64,000 bases of DNA from IMG/VR virus record IMGVR_UViG_3300031774_000001; one strand, written 5' to 3'. The position numbers and the translations under genes were made by a program. Shown here piece after piece: positions 1 through 64,000 of the stretch. Below the pieces are notes generated by a model. It did no database searches and was not told where the DNA came from. It worked only from the letters and a program-made list of their open reading frames with translations. The stretch comes from a virus. Each line of letters opens with the position of its first letter. The first letter of the stretch is position 1.

Positions 1-2
1 AA

Positions 3-2219
3 GACATAACGCAAGTTTCTGCTTCTTCTGTAGAAATGAATAGTGGTCTACAATTTTATGATGGCATATCAACAAACGAAATTCAACAAATCTTAATTAA
101 ATCAGCAAACGATTTAATCACTTTAGAAAATCCAAATTATCAATATGTTGCCGCTAGACTATTACTCTATAGTTTAAGAAAACAACTATTTCATAAAATG
201 TGGGATCATCCACATATTTACGACCACGCAAAAAAATGCATTGAGTTAGGTGTTTATGATAAAGAAGTTTTAAATTGGTATGATAAAAAAGATTTTGATA
301 GAATGGAAAATTGGTTAAATCACGAAAGAGATTATACTTTTACATATGCAGGTTTAAGACAAGTCATTGACAAATATCTAGTGCAAGATAGAAGTACAGG
401 ACAAATTTTTGAAACACCACAATTTATGTATATGATGATATCTGCTACATTATTTGCAAAATACCCAAAGAACAAAAGGATGAGTTATGTTAAAAAATAT
501 TATGACGCTATTTCACGTTTTAAAATCAATATTCCAACACCTGTTATGGCTGGTGTACGAACTCCTATTAGGCAGTATGCGAGTTGTGTCTTGGTGGATG
601 TTGATGATACTTTGTCTAGTATCTTTTCTAGTGATATGGCCATTGGTAAGTATGTTGCCCAAAGAGCAGGAATTGGTATCAATGCAGGAAGAATTAGAGG
701 GATCAACTCACGTATTAGAGGTGGCGAAGTACAACATACTGGCGTTATTCCTTTTCTTAAAAAATTTGAAGCAACTGTTAAGTGTTGTACTCAAAACGGA
801 GTACGAGGAGGGTCGGCAACTGTTCACTTCCCTATTTGGCACAAAGAAATAGAAGATATAATTGTTTTAAAAAATAATAAAGGTAGTGAAGATAATAGAG
901 TAAGAAAATTAGATTACTCTATACAGTTATCAAAATTATTTTATGAAAGATTTATTAATGATGAAGAGATAACTTTATTTTCACCACACGAAGTACCAGA
1001 ATTGTATGAAGCGTGGGGAACAAAAGAATTTGACGAACTATATACAACGGCAGAAAGAAAAACTAGTGTATGGAAAACTAAAATATCAGCACAACAATTG
1101 TTTATGGCAATTTTAAAAGAAAGAGCAGAAACAGGTCGTATTTACATTATGAATATAGACCATTGTAATACACACTCTAGTTTTAAAGATAGAGTTTATA
1201 TGTCTAACTTATGTCAAGAGATTACTTTACCTACAGACCCAATAAGTCATATAGATGGTGAAGGAGAAATTGCATTATGTATTTTATCAGCAGTTAATGT
1301 AGGACTTTTAAAAGATTTAGATGAATTAGAAACCTTATGCGATTTAGCAGTAAGGTCATTAGACGAAGTTATAGACCATCAAAGATATCCAGTTAAAGCG
1401 GCAGAAATTTCTACAAAAAGACGAAGAAGTTTAGGAATTGGATATATAGGTCTTGCTCACTACTTAGCAACATTAGGACTTGGTTATGAAACTAAAACTG
1501 CTTGGAAAGAAGTAGATAAGTTATCAGAAGCATTCCAGTATTATCTATTAAAATCTAGTAATGAATTAGCAAAAGAAAAAGGCAAGTGCGAAGCATTTGA
1601 CAAAACAAAGTATTCAGATGGTATCTTACCAATAGACACCTACAAAAAAGAAGTTGATGAGATTGTATCTCGGAAACTTTCATATAAATGGGAAGACTTG
1701 AGGAAAGATATTAAGGAATTTGGGTTAAGACATAGCACACTCACGGCTCAAATGCCTTCTGAAAGCTCTAGTGTGGTTTGTAATGCCACAAACGGCATTG
1801 AACCACCTAGAGATTATATTTCAGTTAAGAAGAGTAAGAAAGGTACTTTAAAACAAGTTGTACCTGATTACAAAAGATTAAAAAATAATTATACGTTATT
1901 ATGGGATATGAAAAGTAATGAAGGATATATAAACATAGTAGCAGTAATGCAAAAATATTTTGACCAATCAATTAGTGGTAATTGGTCATATAATCCTGAA
2001 AATTATGATGAAGGAGAAATACCTTTATCAATAATGGCAGAAGATTTATTAACAACTTATAAATTAGGTTGGAAGACTTCTTATTATCAAAACACATATG
2101 ATAGTAAGAAAGATGTTGAGGAACCTGTACATCCTATCGGTTGGAAAGATGATGTACCAGAATCTAAAACTATAACGGAGATAAAAGACGAAGAAGAATG
2201 TGAAACCTGTGTAATTTAA
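3..2219 (+). CDS. nrdA: Ribonucleotide reductase class Ia alpha subunit (5'-truncated by the window edge)
   Basis: ATP-cone remnant, PTPVMAG, SCVL, SNLCQEI catalytic motif, C-terminal CETC; frame is open to the window start. Confidence 0.98.
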   Translation, partial: DITQVSASSVEMNSGLQFYDGISTNEIQQILIKSANDLITLENPNYQYVAARLLLYSLRKQLFHKMWDHPHIYDHAKKCIELGVYDKEVLNWYDKKDFDRMENWLNHERDYTFTYAGLRQVIDKYLVQDRSTGQIFETPQFMYMMISATLFAKYPKNKRMSYVKKYYDAISRFKINIPTPVMAGVRTPIRQYASCVLVDVDDTLSSIFSSDMAIGKYVAQRAGIGINAGRIRGINSRIRGGEVQHTGVIPFLKKFEATVKCCTQNGVRGGSATVHFPIWHKEIEDIIVLKNNKGSEDNRVRKLDYSIQLSKLFYERFINDEEITLFSPHEVPELYEAWGTKEFDELYTTAERKTSVWKTKISAQQLFMAILKERAETGRIYIMNIDHCNTHSSFKDRVYMSNLCQEITLPTDPISHIDGEGEIALCILSAVNVGLLKDLDELETLCDLAVRSLDEVIDHQRYPVKAAEISTKRRRSLGIGYIGLAHYLATLGLGYETKTAWKEVDKLSEAFQYYLLKSSNELAKEKGKCEAFDKTKYSDGILPIDTYKKEVDEIVSRKLSYKWEDLRKDIKEFGLRHSTLTAQMPSESSSVVCNATNGIEPPRDYISVKKSKKGTLKQVVPDYKRLKNNYTLLWDMKSNEGYINIVAVMQKYFDQSISGNWSYNPENYDEGEIPLSIMAEDLLTTYKLGWKTSYYQNTYDSKKDVEEPVHPIGWKDDVPESKTITEIKDEEECETCVI

Positions 2220-2228
2220 AGGAGCCAA

Positions 2229-2900: not shown

Positions 2901-3996
2901 AAGCGTATTTAATACAGAAAAAAAATTAGACTATACTAAACAACCTATGTTTTTTGGTCAAGATTTACAAGTACAAAGATATGATGAAATGAAATATCCT
3001 ATCTTTAATAAACTCTTTCAACAACAATTAGGTTACTTCTGGAGACCAGAAGAAGTATCTTTACAGAAAGATATATCAGACTATAAAGAGTTAAATGAAC
3101 AACAAAAGTTTATCTTTACATCTAATTTAAAATATCAAACAATGATGGATAGTGTGCAAGGACGAGGACCGGCTTTAGCATTTTTACCTTTTGTTTCAAT
3201 ACCTGAATTAGAGAGTTGTGTTCTTGCGTGGGACTTTTTTGAAAACATACACTCTCACTCATATACATATATCATTAAAAATTTATATTCAAATCCTAGT
3301 GAAGTTTTTGATACTATAATTTCAGATGAAAAGATTGAGAAAAGAGCAATTAGTATAACACAAAGATATGATGATATGATAAATTTAGGTTATAAATGGC
3401 AATTAAAACCAGATAGTGTTGATATGTATGAGTTGAAAAAGAAATTATATTTAACATTGATGACTGTTAATATATTAGAAGGATTAAGATTTTATGTTTC
3501 TTTTGCGTGTTCGTTTGCATTTGGAGAATTAAAAATGTTAGAAGGTTCTGCTAAAATATTATCATTAATAGCACGTGATGAAACTTTACATTTATCAATC
3601 TCACAAAGAATACTTAATAACTATCGTGATAATGAAAATGATAGAATTATGAATAAAGTGATGAAAGATACAGAAAAAGAAGTTTATACAATGTATGAAA
3701 ATGCAGTAGGACAAGAGAAACGTTGGGCGACTTATTTGTTCTCTAAAGGTTCTATGATAGGATTATCAGAAAAACTATTACATCAATTTGTAGAGTATAT
3801 GGCAAATAGACGTATGAGAGCAATAGGATTAGAACCACAATATGACCAAAAAGTAAATCCATTACCTTGGGTTGACCATTGGTTAAATAGTAGGTCATTA
3901 CAAAATGCACCACAGGAAACAGAAATTGAAAGTTATGTCATAGGTGGCATTAAACAAGATGTACAAAAGGATCAGTTTAAGAAATTTAAATTATAA
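2893..3996 (+). CDS. nrdB: Ribonucleotide reductase class Ia beta subunit
   Basis: FWRPEEV, DSVQGR, ENIHSHSY (radical Tyr), EGLRFYVSF, RDETLH di-iron ligands. Confidence 0.98.
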   Translation: MTKSVFNTEKKLDYTKQPMFFGQDLQVQRYDEMKYPIFNKLFQQQLGYFWRPEEVSLQKDISDYKELNEQQKFIFTSNLKYQTMMDSVQGRGPALAFLPFVSIPELESCVLAWDFFENIHSHSYTYIIKNLYSNPSEVFDTIISDEKIEKRAISITQRYDDMINLGYKWQLKPDSVDMYELKKKLYLTLMTVNILEGLRFYVSFACSFAFGELKMLEGSAKILSLIARDETLHLSISQRILNNYRDNENDRIMNKVMKDTEKEVYTMYENAVGQEKRWATYLFSKGSMIGLSEKLLHQFVEYMANRRMRAIGLEPQYDQKVNPLPWVDHWLNSRSLQNAPQETEIESYVIGGIKQDVQKDQFKKFKL

Positions 3997-6119: not shown

Positions 6120-6403
6120 TGTATCAACCATTACCAAGAGAAGTGCAAATTAAAATGAGCAAAATTCACGGAGAAGGATTATTTGCAAAAGAAGATATTG
6201 ATGACAATACAAAGATAGGATTAGGTTGGTTGATTGTAGGTCCTGAATTAATAAGAACTCCATTAGGAGGTTTCATTAATCATAGTGATGAACCAAATAC
6301 AATAAAAATAAAAAAAGATAATAGATATTATCTCTATACAATAAGAGATATAAAAAAAGGTGAAGAGTTAACTTTAAAATATACTTTTTATAGTGTGAAA
6401 TGA
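6119..6403 (+). CDS. Minimal SET-domain protein (putative lysine methyltransferase)
   Basis: SKIHGEGLFA, FINHSDEPN, RDIKKGEELTLKY. Confidence 0.88.
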   Translation: MYQPLPREVQIKMSKIHGEGLFAKEDIDDNTKIGLGWLIVGPELIRTPLGGFINHSDEPNTIKIKKDNRYYLYTIRDIKKGEELTLKYTFYSVK

Positions 6404-7143
6404 GCAAATTAACTGTTATATTACCAGCGGCTGGAAAAGGAACTAGATTAAATCTACCATATCCAAAAGAAATATTACGATTAGATAATGATAATGCTTT
6501 GATTGATAATTGTTTTAATTTTTTTAGAGATTATGGAAGAAATGATGTTGAATTTATAGTTATTATTAATGAAGACAAACCAGAACTATTAACTTATTTA
6601 GCAAAATATAAAAGTAAATTTAACATATCATTTATATATCAAAATCCTTTTCATCAAGAATATACAGGTGCAATTAAAAGTGCTAGACCTTTATTTGGAG
6701 AACATAATATAGTTTTATTGCCTGATACATTAATGACATTACAACCAAATCAAGATTTATATACTTTAATTATGTCAGCATTACAAGAAACAGGATTTAC
6801 ATTTTTATATAAAGAAGAATTAGATGATTCAGTATTAAAAACTAAAGGTGCATTAAATATAAATGCTGAAAATTTAGTTTTAGATTATTGCGATAAACCT
6901 GAAAATAATAAATTAGGTATATATAATGCGTTTTGGTGTGCATTTGGATTTAGAAGACGAGTATTTGATACTTGTATGAGTTTTATGGAAAAATCTACGT
7001 TAAAAATGAAAGTAAATGGTAAAGATATAAAATCAACACCTATCTATGGTAGTAAAGCAATTAAAGTAAAAGACTATGTTGATTTAGGAACTTGGAGTGA
7101 AATAAGGAGATTATTAATAAATTATGAAAAAGATAATAACTGA
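6400..7143 (+). CDS. Sugar-phosphate nucleotidyltransferase
   Basis: ILPAAGKGTRL...PKE, LLPD, YVDLGTW. Confidence 0.85.
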   Translation: MSKLTVILPAAGKGTRLNLPYPKEILRLDNDNALIDNCFNFFRDYGRNDVEFIVIINEDKPELLTYLAKYKSKFNISFIYQNPFHQEYTGAIKSARPLFGEHNIVLLPDTLMTLQPNQDLYTLIMSALQETGFTFLYKEELDDSVLKTKGALNINAENLVLDYCDKPENNKLGIYNAFWCAFGFRRRVFDTCMSFMEKSTLKMKVNGKDIKSTPIYGSKAIKVKDYVDLGTWSEIRRLLINYEKDNN

Positions 7144-7696
7144 CTGTGATGGTGTCCTTTTAGACTGGTGTTTTGCTTTTGACATTTGGATGAGTGAACA
7201 AGGATATACTAGAATGCCTGAAACGGATCATTACTTTAGTCAATCAAAACGATATAACATACCCGAAAAAGAAGCATTAGAACAAGTTAATTTATTTAAT
7301 CAAACAGGAGTGTTAGGATTTGTACCAGCATATAAAGATAGTGTTGAGTATGTAACTAGATTGGCAAGAGAAGGTTATAGATTTGATGTTATTACTATGA
7401 TTGGACCTGACAAGTATGCTCATAAGTTAAGAAAAGCAAATTTAAGACATTTATTTGGTGATGTATTTGATGAAATATATTGTGCAGGAGATTTTAAACA
7501 ACCTAAAAAAGAAATTTTAGAAGAAAGATATAAAGGAACAAATTATGTTTGGATTGAGGATAGAGTTGATTATGCAATGCAAGGTGATGAAGTTGGTTTA
7601 AATACATTTATGATGGATCATCCTTATAATAGAGAATATAAAGGACAACGAGTGAAGAATTGGAAAGAATTATATGACACCACATTTAGAAGCTAA
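7124..7696 (+). CDS. HAD-family phosphatase/nucleotidase (T4 30.2-like)
   Basis: IITDCDGVLLDW motif I, WIED, HPYN. Confidence 0.8.
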   Translation: MKKIITDCDGVLLDWCFAFDIWMSEQGYTRMPETDHYFSQSKRYNIPEKEALEQVNLFNQTGVLGFVPAYKDSVEYVTRLAREGYRFDVITMIGPDKYAHKLRKANLRHLFGDVFDEIYCAGDFKQPKKEILEERYKGTNYVWIEDRVDYAMQGDEVGLNTFMMDHPYNREYKGQRVKNWKELYDTTFRS

Positions 7697-8339
7697 AATT
7701 GGTGATTATGCTGATACAGTATTATTACCTGGTGATCCGTTAAGAGCAAAATGGATTGCAGAAACATATTTAGATAATGTAAGACAAGTTAATAGTGTGA
7801 GAAATATGTTAGGCTTTACAGGAACATATAAAGGTAAATCTATATCAGTACAAGGAGGTGGTATGGGTATGCCTTCAAACGCAATTTACATACACGAACT
7901 TTATAATACGTATAATGTAAAAACTATTATAAGAGTGGGTAGTTGTGGTGGTATTCATAAAAATTTAAATGTAGGCGATATAGTTGTAGCTACAAGAGCA
8001 ATTACAGACAACGCAATGATAAATGTATCTGTTGTTGAAGGATCAAGTGATTTGTTAAATGCTTATATGAAAGTTGCACCTGAAAATACTATGCAAGGAT
8101 ATATCAAGTCTAGTGATTGGTTTTATAATCCAAATAAAGATTGGTGGAAAGATGAAAATATTGCAATAGCAGTTGAAATGGAAACACATATATTATATAA
8201 TTTAGCAAATAAATTTAACAAGAAAGCATTATCAGTATGTACAGTTGCAGACCATTTTGAAAAACCAGAAGATATGACTTCTAAAGAAAGAGAAACTAGT
8301 TTTAAAGCAATGATAGAGAGTATATTAAAAATATGTTAG
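7674..8339 (+). CDS. deoD: Purine nucleoside phosphorylase DeoD-type
   Basis: MTPH, LLPGDPLRAKWIAE, VRNMLGFTGTYKG, GMGMPS, IRVGSCG, AVEME. Confidence 0.93.
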   Translation: MTPHLEAKIGDYADTVLLPGDPLRAKWIAETYLDNVRQVNSVRNMLGFTGTYKGKSISVQGGGMGMPSNAIYIHELYNTYNVKTIIRVGSCGGIHKNLNVGDIVVATRAITDNAMINVSVVEGSSDLLNAYMKVAPENTMQGYIKSSDWFYNPNKDWWKDENIAIAVEMETHILYNLANKFNKKALSVCTVADHFEKPEDMTSKERETSFKAMIESILKIC

Positions 8340-9307
8340 TCTTTGTAACACCTAAAAGAAGTGAAGAACATAAAGTGCCTTATTCTTATAGAACAAGAGC
8401 AAATATAGTATCGGAGAATATATTTGATAGTAGAGTTACAGATGATATTAAAACTTTACAACAAAATGATGTTGCAGTATTAGGTAAAAGACATACAAGA
8501 GAGGATGCTGAATATTGTATAAAACACGATATTAAATATATTGTTGATGTTGCAGATGATAAGTTTACAATGTTTAAGCATTGGTATCATACAATACCAA
8601 AAGCAACAGCAGTTACTACAACTTGCCAGCATTTAAGAACAATTATATTAGATGAAGTTGGTAAAGGTTCTGTTATTATACCTGACCCTACTGAAAGAAA
8701 AAGAGGTGTACCAAAGTTTGAAGTAAAAGAAACTATGAAAGCATTTTATTATGGTGCAGAAGGTAATTATAGAAAAATAGATTGGTTAAGAGTTAAATCA
8801 ACTTTAAATTCTGTAAGAAAAACTAGAGTTGATATTATGACAAATAAATCAGAAGATCCACCTAAAGCTTACAAATATTTAAATAGATATGGACAATTTT
8901 GGTTAACACCAGAAGATAGAATAGCATTACAGAAAGAAGGTGTTAAAGAATATACCAGTTTAATAAATTGGAACTTTGATAAACAAGAGCAGTTAGTTAA
9001 TGAATCCGATTTTGTTTTATTACCAGTTACTTCTGATAGAGAATCAAGAAGTAAAGGAAATAATAGACCTATTGACGCATTGCAACAAGGTAGAATAGTA
9101 TTAACCAATCCAGGTATAAAGAGTTATGAAGATTTAAAAAAATACTTATATATAGGTGATTTTTATACAACGTATAAATTAATGCTTGAAAATCCTGAAG
9201 AAGTATTATCAAAAATTAGAAATGCTCAAACGTATATAAATGAACATTATACACCAAAAGCAATAGGATTGAAGTGGAAAAGAGTATATGACAGACTACA
9301 TAAATAG
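8333..9307 (+). CDS. Putative glycosyltransferase (GT-B-like)
   Basis: DVADD, SDFVLLP...SKGNNRPIDALQQG resembles a GT-B C-terminal motif; glycan-cluster context. Confidence 0.55.
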   Translation: MLVFVTPKRSEEHKVPYSYRTRANIVSENIFDSRVTDDIKTLQQNDVAVLGKRHTREDAEYCIKHDIKYIVDVADDKFTMFKHWYHTIPKATAVTTTCQHLRTIILDEVGKGSVIIPDPTERKRGVPKFEVKETMKAFYYGAEGNYRKIDWLRVKSTLNSVRKTRVDIMTNKSEDPPKAYKYLNRYGQFWLTPEDRIALQKEGVKEYTSLINWNFDKQEQLVNESDFVLLPVTSDRESRSKGNNRPIDALQQGRIVLTNPGIKSYEDLKKYLYIGDFYTTYKLMLENPEEVLSKIRNAQTYINEHYTPKAIGLKWKRVYDRLHK

Positions 9308-9316
9308 AGATAAGGA

Positions 9317-10477
9317 GTGATTATGAAATATCCATTAGCCTGTGATACTTGGGATCAAAAAGAACTAGACGCAATACAAGAAGTTATAAAAAGTGGCCGA
9401 TATACAATGGGCCCACACGTCAAGAAGTTTGAGCAAGAGTTTGCTAAATATTTTAGATGTAAAGACGCAGTTATGGTTAATAGTGGTTCAACCGCCAATC
9501 TATTAATGGTAGCATTATTAAAATTAAAATATAAAAAAGGTGGTAATATAATTGTGCCTGCTGTATCTTGGTCAACAACATATTTTCCATTACAACAATA
9601 CGGTTTCAAATTAAATTTTGTAGATGTAGATAGAGAAACTTTAAATATAGACCCTAATAAAGTTAGAGAAGCAATTAATGAGGATACGTGTGCTATATTT
9701 GCAGTTAATCTTTTAGGTAACTCCTGTGACCATTATTCATTAATGCATATTGCTAGAGATAATGGACTTATGTTAATAGAGGATAATTGTGAGAGTTTAG
9801 GTGCTCAGACATATAACTTTGAATATTGTGGAACGTTTGCTGATTTAGGTAGTTTTTCTTTCTTCTTTTCACATCACTTACAAACAATGGAAGGTGGTAT
9901 GATTGCTTGTAGAGATAAAGATGACGCAGATTATTTAAGGTCATTAAGAGCACACGGTTGGTGCCGAGATTTACCAGACGATAATAAGATTTATAAGAAG
10001 ACTGGAGATAAATTTAAAGATAGTTTTACGTTTGTAACTCCAGGATATAGTGTTAGACCATTAGAAATGAGTGGTGCGATAGGTAGTGTGCAACTTAAAA
10101 AAGAATTTGCAATGAGAACACAAAGAATTAAAAATGCTAAATATTTTCAAGAAAGATTTAAAAATAATAAAGATATTTTATTACAGAAAGAAATAGGAAC
10201 ATCTAGTTGGTTTGGATTCTCACTAGTATTACAAAACAATTTAGAAGGTAAACGTGATGAAGTTGTTAAGAAACTTACAGAAAATGGAGTAGAGTGTAGA
10301 CCTATTGTTGCAGGAAACTTTATGAAAAATCCTGTAATAGATTATCTTGAATATTATAGTAATAGTTGTCCTAATGCAGATTATATTCATAAGAATGGTT
10401 TGTTTATAGGAAATGATATAGGAGATTTAACATTAAACATTGATATGGTATACAGTATAATAAAGGAAGTAAAATGA
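9317..10477 (+). CDS. ColD-like GDP-4-keto-6-deoxymannose 3-dehydratase (DegT/DnrJ fold)
   Basis: VNSGSTANL, EDNCESLGA, SFFFSHHLQTMEGG with His at the usual PLP-Lys position; next to gmd. Confidence 0.85.
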   Translation: MIMKYPLACDTWDQKELDAIQEVIKSGRYTMGPHVKKFEQEFAKYFRCKDAVMVNSGSTANLLMVALLKLKYKKGGNIIVPAVSWSTTYFPLQQYGFKLNFVDVDRETLNIDPNKVREAINEDTCAIFAVNLLGNSCDHYSLMHIARDNGLMLIEDNCESLGAQTYNFEYCGTFADLGSFSFFFSHHLQTMEGGMIACRDKDDADYLRSLRAHGWCRDLPDDNKIYKKTGDKFKDSFTFVTPGYSVRPLEMSGAIGSVQLKKEFAMRTQRIKNAKYFQERFKNNKDILLQKEIGTSSWFGFSLVLQNNLEGKRDEVVKKLTENGVECRPIVAGNFMKNPVIDYLEYYSNSCPNADYIHKNGLFIGNDIGDLTLNIDMVYSIIKEVK

Positions 10478-11514
10478 AAAGAGCATTAATAACAGGTATA
10501 ACTGGACAAGACGGCGCCTATCTTGCTAAGTTATTATTAGAAAAAGGATATAAAGTATTTGGTGGACAAAGACGAAGTACATCACCAAAACATTGGCGAT
10601 TAGATGAAATGGGTATTACAGACCAAATAGAGTTTGTTGAACTTGATGTAATAGACCAAGCAAACATAAGAAGAGCAATAGAAGAAACTAAACCAGACGA
10701 AGTATATAATTTAGCGGCACAATCATTTGTATGGTTATCATTTAAACAACCAGAACTTGCTACTCTAATAGACGCAATGGGTCCTTTAAGAATACTAGAA
10801 AGTATTAGACAAGTAAATCCTAAAATAAAATTTTATCAAGCAAGTACAAGTGAAATGTATGGAAAAGTATTTGAAACTCCACAATCAGAAACAACAAAGT
10901 TTTGGCCAAGGTCGCCATATGGTGTTGCAAAACTATATGCTCATCACATAACAATTAACTATAGAGAAGCATATAATATGTTTGCTTGTTGTGGTCTTTT
11001 ATTTAATCACGAAAGTGCTCATAGAGGTGAGGATTTTGTAACTAGAAAGATATCAAAAGGTTTAGCAAAATGGTTGAAAGATAGTACACCTATTGTTTTA
11101 GGAAACTTAACAGCAAAAAGAGATTGGGGACACGCCGAAGATTTTGTTAGAGGTATGTGGCAAATGCTACAACACGATAAACCAGATGACTATGTATTAG
11201 CAACTGGTAAAATTCATACAGTAAAACAATTTGCAGATATGGCATTAGATTATAAAGAGATAGAACACTATTGGAAAGATGATGAGTGTTTTACAAAAGA
11301 TAATAGATTAATTATAACAACTGATAAGAAACATTTAAGACCTGCCGAGGTTGATGTATTACAAGGGGATGCTAGTAAGGCAAAAAGAGTATTAGGTTGG
11401 GAACATAAACATAACGTGGAGAGTTTAATGAAAGAAATGGTAGACGCTGATTGTGATAGAATAGGTGCAGATAAAGAAATGAATTTATGGGATAGTCCAG
11501 AGAGGTGTATATAA
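10474..11514 (+). CDS. gmd: GDP-mannose 4,6-dehydratase
   Basis: ALITGITGQDGAYLA, YNLAAQS, YQASTSE, PRSPYGVAK, FNHES, FVTRKI, RDWGHA. Confidence 0.97.
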   Translation: MKRALITGITGQDGAYLAKLLLEKGYKVFGGQRRSTSPKHWRLDEMGITDQIEFVELDVIDQANIRRAIEETKPDEVYNLAAQSFVWLSFKQPELATLIDAMGPLRILESIRQVNPKIKFYQASTSEMYGKVFETPQSETTKFWPRSPYGVAKLYAHHITINYREAYNMFACCGLLFNHESAHRGEDFVTRKISKGLAKWLKDSTPIVLGNLTAKRDWGHAEDFVRGMWQMLQHDKPDDYVLATGKIHTVKQFADMALDYKEIEHYWKDDECFTKDNRLIITTDKKHLRPAEVDVLQGDASKAKRVLGWEHKHNVESLMKEMVDADCDRIGADKEMNLWDSPERCI

Positions 11515-12263
11515 TGGCTGAATATGTTTTTACTACAACATTTAATAGAAAACTTTATGATGACTATGCTCATCAATTAATTGATACGTTTGTGGCAACA
11601 AAGCAGTTAGCAATGATGTATGTTTTTGTTGAAGATAACCCTAATTTTTACCCTAAAGTAGATAGAGTACACTATTATAATATATTTGATTACGAACCAG
11701 ATTTAAAAGATTTTATTGAAAGAAATAAACATAGAAAAGCAAATACTTTTTATGAAGAAGCAATAAGATTTAGTTATAAAGTATTTGCTCAATCAGCAGC
11801 CAGAGCTAGGGGTGAGAAAATAATTTATGTAGATAGTGATTGTAAGTTTATGGATACAATACCTGGCGAATGGTATCAGCAATGTATACCAAATTTGAAT
11901 TTTTTATCATTTTATGATAGACCAAAACAATATACAGAAACAGGTTTACTTGCATTTAATACTAGTCCAAATGGTAATTATAGCATATGCAATAGGTTTT
12001 TTGAAGAATATAAAAATTGGTATGTAACAGATAAAGTATATTCAATAAACAAATTAGGAAAGAATTTTTGGACAGATTGCCATACATTGGACGCAACTAG
12101 GCAAATGTTTAAAGACGATCCCAATTATAGTGAAAGACCACTAGGGGACGGTGAAAACGGTCATATAATGGCAAGAGATAAGTGGCTTAATCCATATATA
12201 GACCATAGAAAAGGAAAAAGAAAATTTTCCTCAAATAGTCCAGAATGGAGAAAACATAGATGA
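11505..12263 (+). CDS. Putative GT-A glycosyltransferase
   Basis: RFSYKVFA, YVDSD (DxD), ETG, WTDC, DHRKG. Confidence 0.65.
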   Translation: MYIMAEYVFTTTFNRKLYDDYAHQLIDTFVATKQLAMMYVFVEDNPNFYPKVDRVHYYNIFDYEPDLKDFIERNKHRKANTFYEEAIRFSYKVFAQSAARARGEKIIYVDSDCKFMDTIPGEWYQQCIPNLNFLSFYDRPKQYTETGLLAFNTSPNGNYSICNRFFEEYKNWYVTDKVYSINKLGKNFWTDCHTLDATRQMFKDDPNYSERPLGDGENGHIMARDKWLNPYIDHRKGKRKFSSNSPEWRKHR

Positions 12264-12517
12264 CGGATAAAGATGAGTTACAAAAAGCGTTAGATGGTGA
12301 AATGGGTTTACCAACAGAAACATCTAGCGAACACGATAGAACTTATGAGAACGAAGGCGCTAGAGATTACAGTCCTATGGTTCAAATAAGTATTAAAGAA
12401 TATGATAAATTAAAAGAACAAAATAAGTATATTACAGACCCTACTTTGATTGGTATGATAGATAAGTTAGAGTTTTTTTTAAAAGAGTTGAGAAAACACA
12501 TAGTAAGAAAATTATAA
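12260..12517 (+). CDS. Hypothetical protein
   Basis: ATGA-coupled ORF. Confidence 0.6.
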   Translation: MTDKDELQKALDGEMGLPTETSSEHDRTYENEGARDYSPMVQISIKEYDKLKEQNKYITDPTLIGMIDKLEFFLKELRKHIVRKL

Positions 12518-13194
12518 TGATTAACATTTTTGTTGGATATGATAGTAAAGAAAAGGTAGCATTTAATGTACTTGCATATAGTATATTAAAGTATAGTACA
12601 AGACCTGTATCTATTACACCAATATATCTTCCTAATATAAAAGATAACTTTATTAGAGAAAGAAGTAATATAGAATCAACTGAATTTAGTTTTAGTAGAT
12701 TTATAGTACCACACCTTATGAATTATAAGGGTTGGGCATTGTTTATGGATTGTGACCAGTTAATGATGACAGATGTTGCTGAATTATGGAGATTACGTGA
12801 TGAGAAATATGCTGTCCAAGTATGTAAACACGATTATATACCAAGAAACTCAAAGAAGTTTTTAGGTCAAACACAAACAAAATATGAAAAGAAAAATTGG
12901 TCAAGTTTTATGTTAATGAATTGTGATAAGTGTACAGCATTAACACCAGATTACGTTAATACTGCTACAGGATTACAATTACATCAATTTAAATGGTTAG
13001 AGAACGATAGTTTAATTGGAGAACTACCATTAGAGTGGAATTGGTTAGTTGGGGAATATCCTCGTAAAGATGATGTTAAGAATGTTCATTTTACAGAAGG
13101 TGGACCTTGGTTTGTAGATTATCTACAATGTGATTATTCAGATGAGTGGCACACTCTTAAAAGAGAAACAACTGAAACGAATATGGTTAAATGA
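12517..13194 (+). CDS. GT-A glycosyltransferase (GT8-like)
   Basis: IFVGYD, STEFSFSRF, FMDCD, KNWSSFML, WNWLV, HFTEGGPW. Confidence 0.85.
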   Translation: MINIFVGYDSKEKVAFNVLAYSILKYSTRPVSITPIYLPNIKDNFIRERSNIESTEFSFSRFIVPHLMNYKGWALFMDCDQLMMTDVAELWRLRDEKYAVQVCKHDYIPRNSKKFLGQTQTKYEKKNWSSFMLMNCDKCTALTPDYVNTATGLQLHQFKWLENDSLIGELPLEWNWLVGEYPRKDDVKNVHFTEGGPWFVDYLQCDYSDEWHTLKRETTETNMVK

Positions 13195-13958: not shown

Positions 13959-14032
13959 GATTAGGTATTGGCGCTTTATTTGTTTTCTTGTCAAGTATAT
14001 TTGCTTGGATAATGAAGAGGAAGAAAAGATGA
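13955..14032 (+). CDS. 25-aa membrane micro-protein MRLGIGALFVFLSSIFAWIMKRKKR
   Basis: ATGA overlaps at both ends, SD TGGAG, one TM helix plus basic tail; not in the ORF track. Confidence 0.6.
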   Translation: MRLGIGALFVFLSSIFAWIMKRKKR

Positions 14033-15556: not shown

Positions 15557-16352
15557 TATACCTTGGGATAAATGTTTAAGTAAACAATTGTTTCCTGCTA
15601 TAGAAAAAGGATGGTCAAGTGAAGGCAGACCTACTCATTTCTTTTGGGGACTTGCAGGTAAAAATATAAAAGGTATAAGAGAGTGCATAGAGAAAAATGA
15701 AGAGTGGTGGTATGTAGATGTTGGTTATTTAACACAACCAATTACAAGATATCCAGAACCAATTATACACGATTACGATAAGACATATTTTAGAATATGT
15801 AAAGGTAATTTACATACGATAAGAGGTAAAGTAGGGCCTGGAACACGATTACAGAAACTAGAGCATCTTGGGATAGATGTAGATTTTAAAGGGTGGAATA
15901 CTGGAGAAACAACTCATATACTAGTAGCACCTTCTTCTCAAACAGTAACTTACCATATTAATGGAATAAGTCAAGACGATTGGATTAAACAAGTTACAGA
16001 AGAGATTAAGAAACATACAGATTTACCTATTAAGTTTAGAAACAAACCTAGACCTGGTAATGAGTGGTGGGATACTGATATAAAAGATGATTTAAAAAAT
16101 GCTCATTGTTTGGTAACCAATATGAGTTTAGCTGGTGTTGACGCAATATTAAATCAAGTACCTGTTATATGCCATCAAAGAAATGTATGCTCATTTATAT
16201 CATCAAAGGATATAAAGTATATAAAGAAACCTATGAGAGCAGGAAGAAAGACTGTAAATGAGTGGTTAAAAATGATTGCAGAAAATCAATTTACAATACC
16301 TGAAATTGAAGATGGAACTGCTTATAGAATATTACAGGAACAAAACGTATGA
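15540..16352 (+). CDS. Polysaccharide-biosynthesis/GT-B-like protein
   Basis: WWYVDVGY, RNKP, CLVTNMSLAGVDAILNQVP, QFT..EI..G. Confidence 0.55.
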   Translation: MIVTHNIPWDKCLSKQLFPAIEKGWSSEGRPTHFFWGLAGKNIKGIRECIEKNEEWWYVDVGYLTQPITRYPEPIIHDYDKTYFRICKGNLHTIRGKVGPGTRLQKLEHLGIDVDFKGWNTGETTHILVAPSSQTVTYHINGISQDDWIKQVTEEIKKHTDLPIKFRNKPRPGNEWWDTDIKDDLKNAHCLVTNMSLAGVDAILNQVPVICHQRNVCSFISSKDIKYIKKPMRAGRKTVNEWLKMIAENQFTIPEIEDGTAYRILQEQNV

Positions 16353-17635: not shown

Positions 17636-18097
17636 ATGAAAAAAAACACTATGAACAAATCAAAAAAAGTTAAATTAAATAAAGTAGACTATACTTTCAA
17701 CGTATGTTATTTAAGAGAGTATATGGATCCCGAACACGAAGGTGATTTTTTCTACGCATACGAAACAATCTACAGAAACGTTCCATACAAATATAAAGAT
17801 AAATTCAATACAACAAAAATGAAGTTTAAAATTCTTAAACATTGTGATTGGAATTATAAAGAAAATGCTAAGAACTTTGCAAATTCAACTAGAATTGAAC
17901 TAATTGACCAAGACCAATACTATCAAACATATGAACAAGTATTTGGTGATGTTGCAGATAACGATAAACATATGTTTAATGATTACGGACAATCTTACGA
18001 TACAAGACAATCTTTCAGAAAAGATTTTAATCCTAAATTAACATATAAATTAAACCCAATAAAAGCAAAAATAGAAAAAGCGAAAGGACTACACTAA
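17636..18097 (+). CDS. Early hypothetical protein
   Basis: First ORF after a strong promoter. Confidence 0.75.
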   Translation: MKKNTMNKSKKVKLNKVDYTFNVCYLREYMDPEHEGDFFYAYETIYRNVPYKYKDKFNTTKMKFKILKHCDWNYKENAKNFANSTRIELIDQDQYYQTYEQVFGDVADNDKHMFNDYGQSYDTRQSFRKDFNPKLTYKLNPIKAKIEKAKGLH

Positions 18098-22152: not shown

Positions 22153-22775
22153 TGAACAAATACATTAAGATTTTATCAGTTGCTGTCTTTGGTCTGTTAT
22201 TGACTAATTGTGCAGGAAATTATAAAATCAAAAGTGAAAAAGGTAAAGTAGTTAATACTGTTCCAAAATGGTATATGGCTGATTTTTCTGAAACTAAAGC
22301 TTGTGATATAGCAAGATTTGGTAAAGGTAAAGAAAAGCAATGTATATTTGGAGTTGGTACTAGCGTTTCACCAGACTTGAATCTCGCAATTGAGAAAGCT
22401 AAAATGATAGCGAAAGCTGAATTAGCAGACATTATCAAAGGGGAGATGAATAAAGAGTCGAAACAATTTATTACTGAAATTGGTAAACATAACAGTAAGA
22501 ACGTTGTTAGTGAAGTAGAATCTGTATTGGTCAATATTATTAAAGATACACCAGTTAGAGGATATGAAATATTTGAGCAAGATGTAACCCTTACAAAAAA
22601 TGGTTATTATAGAGCTTGGATAGGCTTAAGATTGCCATTAGGTGAATATAATAAAATGTTCAACTATACAATTGCTGAAGCTACAGACGCTTATAACTTA
22701 AAGTATCACGCTAATAAGTCATTTGAGAAACTTATGAAAAAAGAAGAGGTTTCAGATGGACAAGTTAGTAATTAA
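22152..22775 (+). CDS. LPP20-like lipoprotein
   Basis: Lipobox LTNC, VPKWY, G.G.S.DL.LA..KA...AKAELA. Confidence 0.7.
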   Translation: MNKYIKILSVAVFGLLLTNCAGNYKIKSEKGKVVNTVPKWYMADFSETKACDIARFGKGKEKQCIFGVGTSVSPDLNLAIEKAKMIAKAELADIIKGEMNKESKQFITEIGKHNSKNVVSEVESVLVNIIKDTPVRGYEIFEQDVTLTKNGYYRAWIGLRLPLGEYNKMFNYTIAEATDAYNLKYHANKSFEKLMKKEEVSDGQVSN

Positions 22776-33141: not shown

Positions 33142-33144
33142 TGA

Positions 33145-33396
33145 ATTTGACGTTGAAGAATAGATAATAACTAGTGAGGACGTGGGTGCGATTCCCACCA
33201 CCTCCACCAATTCAAAACACATATAATAGTGTGCTTTAAGGGGGTGAGTTAGATTCGACTACTACTAAAACTATTTGGAGTTAAATCGCTGATAGCGTAC
33301 TATCAAAACTATAAAAGCAAACGAAAGTTTAGCTCTTGCTGCCTAGTTACTAGGCAAACGGCGTTGTGTAGTACGTGGCAACAGAAACTACACACT
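33145..33396 (+). ncRNA. ssrA: Circularly permuted two-piece tmRNA (alphaproteobacterial type)
   Basis: Acceptor piece ends GTGGG-TGCGATT-CCCAC-CACCTCC-ACCA (33209); intervening hairpin; coding piece starts GGGGGTG (33240); G3-U70 pair; tag ANESLALAA* 33317-33346. Confidence 0.93.
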
Positions 33397-35028: not shown

Positions 35029-35652
35029 ATGGCATATGGTGGCTTTGATGTATATAAAATATATCTAGGTGTTAAGTTACATTTTACAACAGACACCTAC
35101 GACTATTATAAATATAGTGGAAAGGTAAATGCAACATTGGATTCATTTACTAAACGGAAAGATAGATACTTCTTCTACAAGTTATCTACAAGATATAGTC
35201 CAAGTGAAGTGCTTGAATTCTTTGTAAGTAATTTTGTTGACGATAGTAAGAAATGGATTGGTAACTTATTAAATGACGATGGACACAAAACCTACCTCAA
35301 TTACAGAAAATATTTTGAGTCTTTTGACTACAGTTTACGAAACAGTATTAATAGTATTGTTTATGACTTTAGCAGGAGGGGCATTTCTTTTGATGATGGT
35401 TTCAGCGTGGTTAATGGGCAACATCCAAGAATGCTACGCTTACTTATTCAAAGGAGAATTAATTTCCCAACCGCCATCATACTCGACTCGGTTCTTAATT
35501 TTATCAAAAACTGGGATAAACAAATTACGGAAAAAGTTGTGTGGCCTGATATGTCCAGAAAACTCAAAAAAATGAAACCATTTATATCATTTAATAGAAC
35601 TAAAGCAAAATTAATAATGAAGGAGATTATAACTAGTGAACTCAAATCTTAA
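35029..35652 (+). CDS. 59: Helicase loader gp59
   Basis: YLGVKLHF...YDYYKY.GK, F.KRKDRYFF.KL; upstream of gp32. Confidence 0.88.
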   Translation: MAYGGFDVYKIYLGVKLHFTTDTYDYYKYSGKVNATLDSFTKRKDRYFFYKLSTRYSPSEVLEFFVSNFVDDSKKWIGNLLNDDGHKTYLNYRKYFESFDYSLRNSINSIVYDFSRRGISFDDGFSVVNGQHPRMLRLLIQRRINFPTAIILDSVLNFIKNWDKQITEKVVWPDMSRKLKKMKPFISFNRTKAKLIMKEIITSELKS

Positions 35653-48466: not shown

Positions 48467-48467
48467 T

Positions 48468-49997: not shown

Positions 49998-50137
49998 TAA
50001 AAGGGGATATTATGAGAACTACTGAAAGAATCTTTGAGAATCGCAAAATTTTTGGGTTTGCTAACGCTAGACGTGTATGGCAACCATTACAACTGGCCGT
50101 AGTAGAGATTAAGACAGGTTAAACACAGAAACAATGA

Positions 50138-50199
50138 GAACAATTAGAGAACAACTATCAGAATTGCCTATTGACACCGTGAGCGGAATAGTGTATAAC
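50138..50199 (+). promoter_or_regulatory. GAAC-N7-GAAC box plus sigma70 promoter
   Basis: GAACAATTAGAGAAC 50138-50152; TTGACA 50171-50176, 17 bp, TATAAC 50194-50199. Confidence 0.75.
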
Positions 50200-50467
50200 G
50201 TAGATGAACTACACACACCACAGCTAGGTCGCCAGTTATACTATGGTAGTCAACCTTACAGTATTCACGAGCAATTTAATGTTGTTCTACAAGGCATATT
50301 AGGTATTTTACCTCTTACGCAAGTGGTCGCAAAGGGTACGCAAACGAGGCTGCGTAAAGATATTATTACACGCAGTCCTCACACGAACCTGCGTAAAGGT
50401 ATTCTAAATAGTATTAAAATGCGTAAGTCGTGTTCTTTAAAAGAAAAACAATATGGGAAAAAATTAA

Positions 50468-51538
50468 ATGACTGACAATAATTTTTTAGGGTTTAATAAC
50501 TTTATCTGGTTTACTGGCGTTGTTGAAGATAGAATGGATCCATTTGCAGTAGGCCGAGTGCGAGTGCGTTGCGTAGGCATACACACACACGACAAAGAAG
50601 TTTTGCCTACTACAGACTTACCTTGGGCGCAAGTTATAATGCCTGTTACAAGTCCTGCGATAAGTGGACTAGGTCAGTCGCCGAGTTTTCTTGTAGAAGG
50701 CAGTTGGGTCTTTGGATATTTTAGAGATGGCGCAAACTGTCAAGAGCCTTGCGTAATAGGTTCACTCCCAGGTATGCCAGCAGAAAAGCCAGACGGCACT
50801 TTAGGATTTTCTGACCCTAACGCAAAATATCCTATTACAAAAAATGAATCAGATGTAAATAGACTTGCCTATAGTGGTTTCACGCAGTTAGGCCTGGTCG
50901 CTAGACAAGATAGTGTTAAGACAGGTATTGCAACGGCCGACTTCAATGCGACTACAAACGCAAGAGGTGGTGAGATAACAGCAAGTGATGGAGATATTTG
51001 GAATCAACCTGCGCCGGCCTGGGCCGCTGTTTATCCTTTCAATCACGTCTTTGAAAGTGAGAGTGGACATACAACAGAATTTGATGATACAGAAGGCGCC
51101 GAAAGAATTGCCCAATTTCATAGAACAGGCACAGGTTATGAAATAGACGCCGTGGGTAATATTAATATATCAAATGTTTCTAACAAATATGAAATTACAA
51201 ACGGTCACTCACGTTACGCCATTACAGGCGATAGTGACATTACAGTAGATGGTCGCCATAAGATATTCATTAACAAAACAGGCCAGGCCAACAATCACTA
51301 TGACATACAGATTGGCCCGAATGCAAACATTAACATACAAGTAGATAAAGGCAATATCAATCTGGTCACCGTTGATGGAGATGTAAATATGAATGTTGGT
51401 GGTAATTACAATCTAAAAGTAAAAGGTGATTACTATAGTGATATATGGGGCAGTAAGAACGAAACAATACAAGGCAGTAAAATATCAAATACAACTATGA
51501 GCGTATTTCATAGAGGCTCTTCAATTGATTTAAACTAA
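50468..51538 (+). CDS. 5: Baseplate central spike gp5 (OB-fold plus beta-helix, no lysozyme domain)
   Basis: WF.GVVEDR.DP...GRVRVR, LPWA, VFG.F.DG...Q.P..IG, YP.NHV.ESESGH..EFDDT. Confidence 0.9.
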   Translation: MTDNNFLGFNNFIWFTGVVEDRMDPFAVGRVRVRCVGIHTHDKEVLPTTDLPWAQVIMPVTSPAISGLGQSPSFLVEGSWVFGYFRDGANCQEPCVIGSLPGMPAEKPDGTLGFSDPNAKYPITKNESDVNRLAYSGFTQLGLVARQDSVKTGIATADFNATTNARGGEITASDGDIWNQPAPAWAAVYPFNHVFESESGHTTEFDDTEGAERIAQFHRTGTGYEIDAVGNINISNVSNKYEITNGHSRYAITGDSDITVDGRHKIFINKTGQANNHYDIQIGPNANINIQVDKGNINLVTVDGDVNMNVGGNYNLKVKGDYYSDIWGSKNETIQGSKISNTTMSVFHRGSSIDLN

Positions 51539-51717
51539 CAATAACATATATATCAAACTCGTAAATAAACCAAACAGAAATCTGAAAAACGAGCTGACAA
51601 AAAGGCTATTGTTAAATAACTCTAAAAATTTAAACTATAAATGCAATAACAATCATTAGATATATCGTTATTTAATTTTTCCGCCAAAAAAACCGGCCAG
51701 CATAAATATTCTCAAAT

Positions 51718-52101
51718 ATGTCTATTACAAAACAATCATACACCGACTTAAAAGAGTATTGGGACTTTCAACGTAAGATAGAATACAATAAAGAAAAATT
51801 ACGTGATTTAACTAAAGAAATGCAAGGCCGAGTTTATAATCAATTCGGTATGTTAGATGAGAAAGAGTTATTTGATAGTCTTTGGTGTAAACTTCCTCAA
51901 GACGCATACGAAAATCCGCCATCTACATATATACCAGAAAACGAATCTTACAGATTTGAATGGGAAGGCGAACCTAATAAACAGAAACAATTACCCTTAC
52001 ATAAAAAAGGACGACCTGTTGTTTTACGTGCTAGAAAGAAAATAGAAGATATACTACCCTTTGGTGACAATGATGTTATTAAGCATCCTGATGATAAATG
52101 A
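51718..52101 (+). CDS. Hypothetical protein
   Basis: CATAAATA late-like promoter at 51701; YWDFQRKIEYN. Confidence 0.7.
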   Translation: MSITKQSYTDLKEYWDFQRKIEYNKEKLRDLTKEMQGRVYNQFGMLDEKELFDSLWCKLPQDAYENPPSTYIPENESYRFEWEGEPNKQKQLPLHKKGRPVVLRARKKIEDILPFGDNDVIKHPDDK

Positions 52102-55966: not shown

Positions 55967-56563
55967 ATGAGTAAACACTACCAAACGGTAGAGGACCTAG
56001 ATATTAATTTAGAGGAGCTAATAGCGTGTTATGAACAGTTTAAAGAATCAAAAGGTTTTTCTACAGACAATCCTGATAATATAGACTTCAATGCTATATG
56101 TATCAACCGTAAACCTGGAGACCCCAAATCAATCTCTGGTGGTAATATCCGTGGAATCTATTGGACCTATCCTGACAATACAGGTAAAGAAGAACAAAGA
56201 CTTGAAGAAGTCAACGAAGAAGAATACACTCAAATTTGTCCAGAATTTAAAAACACGTATATTGAAACTCTTTACGATTATTTAACATTAAGATTTAAGT
56301 TAGGTCGTGTTCGTTTTCTAATGAAACCACCTAGAAGTTGTTTAAGTTGGCACCGTGATCCCGAAAAGAGATTACATATCCCAATGATAACAAATGGTGG
56401 TAGTAGAATGGTTATTGAAGATGAGAGTTTTCATATGCCAGCCAATGGAAATGCTTATATTACTGATAATACGAAATATCACAACTTTTTTAATGGTGGT
56501 GAGACTCAAAGAGTTCACCTAGTTGCAACTTTATTAGATTCTAGTGATTCAACTACTGATTAG
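55967..56563 (+). CDS. Asp/Asn beta-hydroxylase-like 2OG-Fe(II) oxygenase
   Basis: GRVR, WHRD..RLHIP..TN, YH...N.G...RVHLV; CATAAATA promoter at 55951. Confidence 0.8.
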   Translation: MSKHYQTVEDLDINLEELIACYEQFKESKGFSTDNPDNIDFNAICINRKPGDPKSISGGNIRGIYWTYPDNTGKEEQRLEEVNEEEYTQICPEFKNTYIETLYDYLTLRFKLGRVRFLMKPPRSCLSWHRDPEKRLHIPMITNGGSRMVIEDESFHMPANGNAYITDNTKYHNFFNGGETQRVHLVATLLDSSDSTTD

Positions 56564-63077: not shown

Positions 63078-63112
63078 AACATTATAAATAGTAAAGTAAT
63101 TTAAAGGAAGAA

Positions 63113-64000
63113 ATGGCTAAACAATCAATATTTTTAGGAACAGTCGCCAATGACGGAACAGGTACTAACCTGCGTGGTGGTGGTAGTATCATAAATCAAA
63201 ATTTTGATGAAATATATACTAATTTAGGGGATGGTAGTAATCTACAAGGATTTATTACTATTGAAGATACTAGTTCTACAACGGATCAAGTAAATCTTGG
63301 TCAAAAAATACAGTTTATTGGTGCAAATGGTATTACAACAACCGTTGGTAGTAATGAAGTTCAAATAGCAATAGACGGTACAGTTCTTACAGAAACATCA
63401 ACAGATACACTAACAAATAAAAACATTGCTTTAGGTACTAATATAATTTCAGGAACATTATCAGATTTTAATACAGCAGTTTCAGACGCTAATTTAGTTT
63501 CAATTGCTGGAACAGAAACCCTTACAAACAAGACATTAACAAGTCCAGTTATTAACACACCAACAGGTGATGTTGCAACTAAAGACGGAACACAAACCCT
63601 TACAAATAAAACTTTAACAAGTCCAGTTATTAACACACCAACAGGTGATGTTGCAACTATAACTGGAACTCAAATTCTTTCTAATAAAACAATAGATACT
63701 GGATCAAACTCAATTACAGGTACGTTATTTACTTTTGCTGATGATACATCATCAACTAATACTATAGTACAAGGAGATACTTTAAAATTTTCTGGTGGTA
63801 CTGGTATACAAACAACTTTAAGTGGAGATTTAATTGAAATTAAAGCTTCAGGAATTACAACTACAGAAATAGACGCTAATGCTGGAATTGTAAATACACA
63901 ATTAGCAAACAATTCAGTTACTATTGGTTATACAGCAATTGAATTAGGAACAAGTGCAACGCAAGTAAGTGGATTATCAATAACTGGTTCTGCTTACATA
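63113..64000 (+). CDS. Virion structural/fibre protein with gp9/gp10-like N-terminus (3'-truncated)
   Basis: MAKQ.I.LGT.ANDGTG..LR.GG..IN.NF.EIY; TLTNKT repeats; late promoter at 63083. Confidence 0.85.
   Translation, partial: MAKQSIFLGTVANDGTGTNLRGGGSIINQNFDEIYTNLGDGSNLQGFITIEDTSSTTDQVNLGQKIQFIGANGITTTVGSNEVQIAIDGTVLTETSTDTLTNKNIALGTNIISGTLSDFNTAVSDANLVSIAGTETLTNKTLTSPVINTPTGDVATKDGTQTLTNKTLTSPVINTPTGDVATITGTQILSNKTIDTGSNSITGTLFTFADDTSSTNTIVQGDTLKFSGGTGIQTTLSGDLIEIKASGITTTEIDANAGIVNTQLANNSVTIGYTAIELGTSATQVSGLSITGSAYI
63509..63690 (+). repeat. 78-bp (26-aa) tandem repeat in the fibre gene
   Basis: Two near-identical GT.TLTNKTLTSPVINTPTGDVAT units plus a partial third. Confidence 0.9.

Follow-up and report, generated by a model that had tools for sequence, protein, structure and literature searches.

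Broad avoidance of restriction-type words, with survivors spared by sequence context, in an uncultured marine pelagimyophage

Introduction

Avoidance of palindromic restriction targets is a familiar feature of phage genomes, an example being the absence of GATC from the genomes of Staphylococcus phage K-like viruses. Phages also carry orphan methyltransferases that act against restriction, such as the Dam enzymes of T4 and P1 and the CcrM-like enzymes of alphaproteobacterial phages. In laboratory DNA, overlapping Dam methylation blocks cleavage by TaqI, ClaI and XbaI. In this work, we describe the avoidance of restriction-type words in a 64,000-nucleotide stretch of the IMG/VR virus record IMGVR_UViG_3300031774_000001. 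The whole of this stretch is referred to as the window. At least 15 restriction-type words have been purged from it, most of which survive only in defined flanking contexts, and it is these survivors and the methylation that may have spared some of them that are analysed here.

For marine phages, depletion of GANTC has been described in about half of the pelagiphages studied, its cause being left open (Seong et al. 2022, PMC9516812). Hiraoka et al. (2022, PMC8919816) described methylomes with multiple motifs in marine myovirus-like genomes, and phage methyltransferases for CCATC/GATGG are reported from marine metagenomes (PMC8919816, PMC9516812). The SAR11 bacteria were long thought to be devoid of restriction-modification systems; sporadic systems, including Dnd and Ssp, have now been reported in them (PMC9516812, PMC13712998).

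Results

Expected word counts were obtained from 200 replicates of synonymous-codon shuffles inside each open reading frame (ORF), which preserve both the protein and the codon usage. Maximum-order Markov expectations served as a second null model and agreed with the depletions seen against the codon shuffles in the window. Unless stated otherwise, the expectations given below are those of the shuffles. CATG is absent from the window (119.4 ± 8.3 sites expected), and so is HGATCD (88.7 ± 6.5 expected). The words HCTNAGD (60 expected), DCAGAG (38), CASTG (31), DCATCG (21), TCTAGA (12), CTGCAG (10.5) and CGCG (9) are likewise missing completely. TCGA is reduced to 3 sites against 58.7 expected, HGATGC together with its reverse complement to 1 against 56.8, GAGACD to 1 against 36, CACAGH to 9 against 37 and CCGG to 3 against 18, while the depletion of AGCT is partial (68 against 160). 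The absence of CATG and the rarity of TCGA had been claimed in the original prediction, which was made from the letters of the window without database searches; the other words given so far, except HGATCD and HGATGC, and the further purged words GTGCAC, ACGGG, CAGGG and CACAGW had been overlooked in it.

The asymmetric words are depleted in both orientations. In a tally larger than the window, which itself contains five GATGC sites, GATGC was found 45 times against 186 expected and GCATC 14 times against 103; the corresponding numbers for GAGAC and GTCTC are 41 against 136 and 10 against 27, and other asymmetric words behave likewise. The avoidance therefore acts on duplex DNA and not on mRNA, and selection at the mRNA level is ruled out. 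The depletion is a real avoidance of restriction-type words. The selection against such words that the original prediction had proposed is supported by codon shuffles, by Markov expectations and by both orientations.

The window has a guanine + cytosine content of 31.5%, and all its long ORFs are on the plus strand. Pfam matches were obtained for NrdA, NrdB, a DegT aminotransferase and gp5-, gp6- and gp7-like baseplate proteins. The top protein matches among isolate phages belong to Pelagibacter phage Mosig (85% identity for NrdA and 72% for gp6), followed by those of HTVC008M and of Methylophilales phage Melnitz, while a megablast search of the window against isolate phages gave no match. The baseplate and NrdAB matches, the best hits to Mosig and HTVC008M and a phage-encoded permuted alphaproteobacterial transfer-messenger RNA (tmRNA) gene (Table 1) identify the window, as judged from its gene content, as part of an uncultured marine T4-like pelagimyophage. 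Its host is probably a marine alphaproteobacterium, SAR11 or a relative. The comparison set comprised about 200 related loci and eleven longer genomes. One of the relatives, the sister genome G006 from IMG/VR, is 177,460 bp long, has 119-bp terminal repeats and a CheckV completeness of 100%. The alignment with the window covers 48 of 64 kb at an identity of about 86%, and the word pattern of the two is alike.

The survivors of the purge fall into two groups. The first group overlaps the motif GANTC. All three TCGA sites of the window lie in such an overlap (Table 1), where 6.6 sites are expected; none is found outside it, where the expectation is 52.6. Similarly, the sole GAGAC of the window with a base other than C after it is part of GAGACTC, and no site is left that belongs to neither GAGACC nor GAGACTC (33.2 expected). 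The same holds for G006, in which GAGACTC occurs 6 times against 6.2 expected and GAGAC in other contexts is absent (100 expected), and in which CAGAGTC is found at expectation (6 against 5.3) while CAGAG in other contexts is reduced to 4 sites against 94. The TCGA survivors overlap GANTC, as TCGANTC or GANTCGA, in 3/3 cases in the window, 2/2 in G006, 4/4 in G012, 3/5 in G013, 2/3 in G014 and 1/1 in G008. This amounts to 15 of 18 sites, whereas the chance rate of such an overlap, by a rough estimate, is about 8% per site. The survivors of GAGAC other than GAGACC are GAGACTC in the window (1/1), in G006 (6/6) and in G014 (3/4). In the TCGA survivors within GANTC, the adenine of TCGA is at the same time the adenine of GANTC. 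Nuclease preference would not readily produce flanks of three bases that complete a known methylation motif, and the pattern fits protection by N6-methyladenine (m6A) at GANTC; these survivors would thus represent a genuine methylation footprint.

No methyltransferase genes were found in the window. The sister genome G006 encodes three orphan methyltransferases, here called A, B and C, whose genes are all located outside the window's span. The product of gene A is a 349-aa protein of the beta class, in which DPPY (residue 29) precedes FAGTG (residue 307). It matches the Pfam family N6_N4_Mtase (PF01555) with an E-value of 7e-40. Among solved structures CcrM is its best relative, and the protein shares 40–47% identity with methyltransferases of Caulobacter and Dinoroseobacter phages. 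With the NCBIfam model for CcrM it scores 77 bits against a cut-off of 830. Gene A occupies a slot between the DNA polymerase gene and B, which in the relatives holds either A, a 186-aa MT-A70 enzyme (PF05063, E-value 1e-31) or nothing (Table 1). Phages with 99%-identical B proteins differ in the content of this slot, A in some and MT-A70 in others. The polymerase gene of Melnitz is followed, in the corresponding position, by a gene for an HhaI-like C5 methyltransferase and that of HTVC008M by a DruA/DUF4338-like gene, and in one lineage the same slot contains a GT28-like glycosyltransferase gene, a DUF2334-like gene and a gene for an NAD-dependent sugar epimerase.

The content of the slot is reflected in the abundance of GANTC. 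The observed/expected ratio is 0.6–1.0 in phages with A or MT-A70 and 0.07–0.13 in G007, G008 and HTVC008M, which have neither. GANTC is kept in 7/7 genomes with one of the two enzymes and purged in 3/5 without them, the genomes not being phylogenetically independent. We infer from this distribution that both slot enzymes, which are unrelated, act alike as GANTC methyltransferases. The original prediction had suggested a search for methyltransferase genes beyond the window, and three are indeed present in the sister genome; the variable slot enzymes, however, track GANTC and not GGAT.

The set of purged words is a mosaic, every related lineage purging its own subset. In G006, CATG is absent against 280 expected sites (445 by the Markov model), HGATCD is absent against 203, and TCGA is left with 2 sites against 169. 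Mosig has none of 166 expected ACGT sites and keeps CATG, and G007 purges GANTC, ACGT, AGCT, TCGA and CATG. Of the twelve genomes examined, all but Melnitz, which keeps 7 of 209 expected sites, are devoid of HGATCD. So absolute a purge, as in the case of CATG in G006, and a purged set that varies between close relatives like a mobile-gene trait would also be in line with self-avoidance, in which the purged words are the targets of the phage's own host-DNA-degrading nucleases, as in chloroviruses, and not of host restriction enzymes. The small number of restriction-modification systems reported in SAR11 points in the same direction (PMC9516812), although sporadic systems have now been reported there (PMC13712998). 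A restriction-like nuclease gene whose distribution follows the purge of any word was not found, and different words are purged by HTVC008M and Mosig, two phages that plate on one and the same host strain. A phage GANTC methyltransferase that offsets GANTC avoidance is, in addition, the classic arrangement against host restriction. Self-avoidance is therefore regarded as very improbable.

The word GGCC is close to expectation in the window (41 against 48.5) and threefold depleted in G006 (26 against 77), so that the two sisters differ in the words they avoid. Twelve of the 41 GGCC sites in the window cluster around the gp5 gene (Table 1). The RGCY words in general (AGCT, AGCC/GGCT and GGCC) are at about 0.3–0.6 of expectation in ten of eleven related genomes and at 0.82 in Mosig. 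This depletion is two- to threefold in most related genomes, unlike the all-or-none purges of other words. RGCY is the commonest motif of N4-methylcytosine (m4C) reported in marine myovirus-like genomes (PMC8919816). The three surviving CCGG sites of the window all overlap RGCY (Table 1). This was not reproduced in G006, where 1 such site was found against 8.6 expected, and survival of CCGG through RGCY overlap is therefore a weak hint only.

The second group of survivors is defined by one flanking G or C each and consists of GGATC, GGATGC, GAGACC, CCAGAG, GCTNAG, CCATCG and CACAGS. The 54 GATC sites of the window are distributed over TGATCC (22), GGATCA (15), GGATCC (8), AGATCC (5), CGATCC (3) and GGATCG (1). 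As the original prediction had stated, every one of them thus lies within GGATC or GATCC and none within [ACT]GATC[AGT]. It had also stated, with exact positions, that GATGC and GCATC occur almost only as GGATGC and GCATCC, and this holds for eight sites, the remaining one being the exception that it had named (Table 1). The spared words are found near their shuffle expectations: 54 against 69.5 for GGATC/GATCC, 8 against 7.2 for GGATCC, 8 against 6.1 for GGATGC with its reverse complement, 12 against 7 for GAGACC, 11 against 10 for CCAGAG, 18 against 28 for GCTNAG/CTNAGC, 8 against 9 for CCATCG and 17 against 11 for CACAGG. In the window, all survivors of these words follow their respective rule. 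Between the window and G006, which are 87% identical across the aligned positions, 57% of the GGATC sites are conserved at orthologous positions, and for control 5-mers this value is 49–71%. With counts at expectation and a turnover like that of the controls, the spared GGATC sites behave neutrally, and the spared sites of this group are selectively neutral. Positive selection for GGATC is ruled out by the same data, the counts being at or slightly under expectation. A codon or amino-acid constraint behind the spared contexts is ruled out as well, since synonymous escapes are available everywhere and the sites occur in several reading frames, 36 of the 54 GATC sites of the window being read in frame as GAT-Cxx.

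The words GAGAC, CAGAG, CTNAG, CATCG and CACAG are spared beside a single G or C in the same way as GATC and GATGC. GGAT is therefore not a special core but one of at least seven exemptions that are set by a single flanking base. For six of these seven exemptions, the sparing base is a second copy of the G or C at the end of the core. No single short motif covers all of them (CC, CCW, WCC, CWGG, SSATS and RGCY were tried). Any base may follow GATCC, neither CCTGAG nor ACCGG is spared, and the GCTNAG survivors are preceded by Y and not by R. The extended context of the one-base survivors shows solely secondary effects of other purged words.

The exemptions were followed through the relatives. 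Those of GGATGC, CCAGAG and CACAGS hold in HTVC008M, Mosig and G007. The GGATC exemption is absent from G007–G009 and Melnitz, restricted to GGATCC in Mosig and partial in G012. G007, G008 and Mosig spare GGATGC without sparing GGATCD, and the two exemptions do not form the unit that the original prediction had assumed. HTVC008M, a complete isolate genome of 147 kb, has both of them: HGATCD is at 0 of 208 expected sites, GGATCD at 55 of 78, GGATCC at 28 of 7, HGATGC at 9 of 115 and GGATGC at 14 of 22. Six-frame searches of this genome detected no MT-A70, D12, N6_N4 or C5 methyltransferase. Relatives of B or C are missing from it, as is any methyltransferase-like ORF with a (D/N/S)PP(Y/F/W/H) motif. 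A small conserved DUF6433 protein with an invariant (N/D)PPY is encoded in HTVC008M, Mosig and G008 (Table 1) and is far too short for a methyltransferase.

In the original prediction, the GGAT exemption was ascribed to an adenine methyltransferase acting at GGAT(C/G). Protection of a site by an overlapping methylated motif does appear to be at work in these phages, the GANTC overlap of the three TCGA survivors and of the sole GAGACD being cases in point; the enzyme for GGAT(C/G) did not fare so well. Such an enzyme would be encoded by the phage outside the window and would methylate GGATC and GGATG (SATCC on the other strand), hemimethylation being enough for protection. The candidates are B and C. 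B (409 aa) has a TSPPYF motif and reaches 25.9 bits with PF01555 against a cut-off of 26.7. C (383 aa) is a 26%-identical paralogue of B that also has TSPPYF, carries DMSMGYGG as motif I and gave no Pfam match. B is very common in marine metagenomes, where it bears no functional name. Its predicted fold (predicted local distance difference test score 83) matches generic class I methyltransferases only, and the nearest solved structures are RNA and small-molecule methyltransferases, which is a point against a GGAT methyltransferase. By the usual motif rule, the SPPY of B and C suggests N4-cytosine methylation (m4C) rather than adenine methylation (m6A).

Several observations are nevertheless in favour of a GGAT methyltransferase. 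Overlap protection already appears to operate for GANTC in the same genomes, three orphan methyltransferases are at hand in G006, and the GGATC exemption varies like a gene-dependent trait, being missing in G007–G009, for which no slot methyltransferase was found. The restriction of the exemption to GGATCC in Mosig, together with the depletion of AGATCC beside neutral GGATCC, would correspond to hemi- versus full methylation. Methylated GATCC and CCATC/GATGG motifs have also been reported in marine metagenomes (PMC8919816, PMC9516812). The comparative data, on the other hand, speak against it. HTVC008M shows both exemptions without a detectable DNA methyltransferase, Mosig lacks B and C and still spares GGATGC, and G007 carries B and C but has no GGATC exemption. 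The swap of A for MT-A70 in phages with 99%-identical B proteins leaves the GGAT rule unchanged, and an enzyme of this kind would account for only two of at least seven one-base exemptions. Since the exemptions return irrespective of the methyltransferases present, an adenine methyltransferase for GGAT(C/G), though possible, is unsupported, and we regard it as doubtful. No plausible candidate was found for a gene present in the GGATC-exempt G006 and HTVC008M and missing from Mosig and Melnitz. Near-isogenic pairs that differ in their GGATC state were not present among the fetched loci; the B proteins of the L178 and L174 types are just 76% identical.

Within the spared GATC contexts, AGATCC/GGATCT is fourfold depleted (5 against 21.6 in the window and 15 against 61 in G006), while the counts of TGATCC, CGATCC and GGATCC are neutral. 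A second agent may therefore be involved, either RGATCY-like or specific for AGATCC.

Another alternative is that the one-base exemptions arise from a modification missed by canonical methyltransferase searches. It would be located at GG/CC steps and be either host-encoded (5-methylcytosine (m5C) or phosphorothioate) or the product of an unrecognised pelagimyophage enzyme. The repetition of the core-terminal G or C in six of seven spared flanks and the occurrence of the exemptions in phages with unrelated or no methyltransferase sets are compatible with this. Detection of m5C by single-molecule real-time (SMRT) sequencing is poor. These phages encode many tailoring enzymes and 2-oxoglutarate (2OG) oxygenases, the methyltransferase slot of one lineage is occupied by genes for a glycosyltransferase and a sugar epimerase, and Dnd and Ssp phosphorothioation systems are present in SAR11 genomes (PMC13712998). 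A general CC/GG mark conflicts, however, with the full purge of CCGG, CAGGG, ACGGG and CCCATC, and GCTNAG lies outside any CC/GG rule. Known phosphorothioation marks only a minority of its sites, and there is no candidate gene that the GGATC-exempt genomes have in common and the others lack. A missed modification of this kind is considered quite unlikely.

A run of about 12 coupled genes in the window includes a DegT-type aminotransferase gene (Table 1). Whether the enzymes encoded there may act on DNA instead of surface sugars can be raised as a question.

Table 1. Coordinates of the features discussed in the text (window positions unless another genome or locus is named).
Feature	Position	Strand	Basis or remark
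Purge of at least 15 restriction-type words, both strands	1..64000		codon shuffles and Markov expectations; about 550 expected sites missing
GAGTCGA, surviving TCGA overlapping GANTC	22455..22461		direct count
GATTCGA, surviving TCGA overlapping GANTC, inside the tmRNA gene	33252..33258		direct count
TCGACTC, surviving TCGA overlapping GANTC	35483..35489		direct count
GAGACTC, GAGAC overlapping GANTC (GACTC)	56501..56507	+	direct count
Spared GGATC, example ACG GAT CAT, ACGGATCAT	7225..7229	+	one of 54 GATC sites
GGATCC, n = 8	17725..17730; further starts 21511, 28837, 31623, 35933, 36475, 50536, 58002		count at shuffle expectation
GGATGC, spared SfaNI-type word, n = 5	8503..8508; further starts 11367, 33499, 45514, 62411	+	direct count
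GCATCC, 3 of the 4 GCATC in the window	starts 38823, 47654, 52083		direct count
Sole GCATC in the window without following C (minus strand AGATGC)	15863..15867	+	direct count
Surviving CCGG, n = 3, all CCGGCY (RGCCGG)	3169..3172; further starts 51014, 51693		direct count
Post-polymerase swap slot	G006 (L091:3306-8264); relatives L099:7114-9559, L244:4823-5380, L249:535-1659, L250:4010-5227		
Permuted alphaproteobacterial tmRNA, phage-encoded	33095-33396		Rfam alpha_tmRNA 87 bits, tmRNA_permuted 100 bits
Cluster of GGCC sites around the gp5 gene	48000-52000		
Run of about 12 coupled genes	6400-17541		
DegT-type aminotransferase gene	9317-10477		
DUF6433 protein with (N/D)PPY	HTVC008M L248:39169-39630; Mosig 117864-118409; G008 10267-10788		

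Discussion

We propose that selection in the lineage of the window has removed the words recognised by many putative sequence-specific host nucleases. The avoided targets would be CATG, GATC, TCGA, CTNAG, CASTG, GCATC, GTCTC, CAGAG, CATCG, CACAG, CGCG, CCGG and several 6-mers. The m6A that a CcrM-type enzyme places at the overlapping GANTC would shield the surviving TCGA and GAGAC sites and, in G006, those of CAGAG, one methylated strand being enough for protection. The likely writer of this methylation is the slot methyltransferase encoded just after the DNA polymerase gene, outside the window, which is A or MT-A70 in the relatives; a host CcrM may add to the methylation of GANTC. For the one-base survivors, the host nucleases may be inactive on the spared contexts. 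Their real targets would then be one base pair longer than the core words, namely HGATCD, GCATCD, GAGACD, DCAGAG, HCTNAGD, DCATCG and CACAGW.

The same one-base rules are found in relatives with differing methyltransferases or none, and nuclease non-action is therefore the most likely cause of these exemptions, to which we give about an even chance of being correct. Several points weigh against the proposed explanation. We know of no restriction enzyme in REBASE with a specificity such as HGATCD or HCTNAGD, and seven unrelated nucleases would each need a negative discrimination at one base. The agreement of the flank with the core-terminal G or C in six of seven cases points to a common cause, which nuclease non-action leaves unexplained. 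The GGATC exemption is variable, and its absence from the three contigs without a slot methyltransferase (G007–G009) is what gene-dependent protection would give; the fourfold depletion of AGATCC against the neutrality of GGATCC is neatly explained by hemi- versus full methylation. For the GANTC overlaps, the specificity of A and MT-A70 is itself inferred.

Although SAR11-type bacteria are credited with few defence systems, roughly one site per 120 bases has been rewritten in this lineage in evading at least a dozen putative nucleases, and close relatives evade other sets. A purge so broad and so variable between sister phages implies a substantial and diverse nuclease pressure. This argues for strong, diverse restriction pressure at the strain level in the most abundant marine bacteria. 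The survivors provide a read-out of methylation from sequence only, which here points to GANTC, and a likely function can be assigned to the methyltransferase swap slot beside the DNA polymerase gene. The one-base exemptions would represent either new nuclease specificities or an unseen modification. It is unlikely that they are the trace of a DNA modification which has escaped recognition, depends on sequence context and is common to pelagimyophages or their hosts; if it were true, phage epigenomes could be read from sequence through such exemptions.

The purge of the window is a known phenomenon in a new form, with many words avoided at once and survivors spared by their context. As in the phage K-type avoidance, short restriction-type words are fully lost at the DNA level through synonymous codons. 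Unlike there, at least 15 words are affected at once, the subset differs for each relative, and most words survive only in defined flanks. The depletion of GANTC concerns the same phage group and the same motif as that described by Seong et al. (PMC9516812). In the genomes compared here, it tracks the absence of the slot methyltransferase, and in the GANTC-keeping phages the motif rescues overlapping TCGA, GAGAC and CAGAG. Solitary methyltransferases without a nuclease partner, about 2–3 per genome, are common to the phages studied here, to T4 and P1 with their Dam enzymes, to the phages with CcrM-like enzymes and to the genomes of Hiraoka et al.; the difference is that methylation is deduced here solely from the sites that escape the purge. 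The arrangement also resembles the blocking of TaqI, ClaI and XbaI by Dam, in that the methylated adenine of one motif lies inside the site of another enzyme and one strand is sufficient. What distinguishes the pelagimyophages from that laboratory effect is that the overlap is seen as an evolutionary footprint, with GANTC in place of the GATC of Dam.

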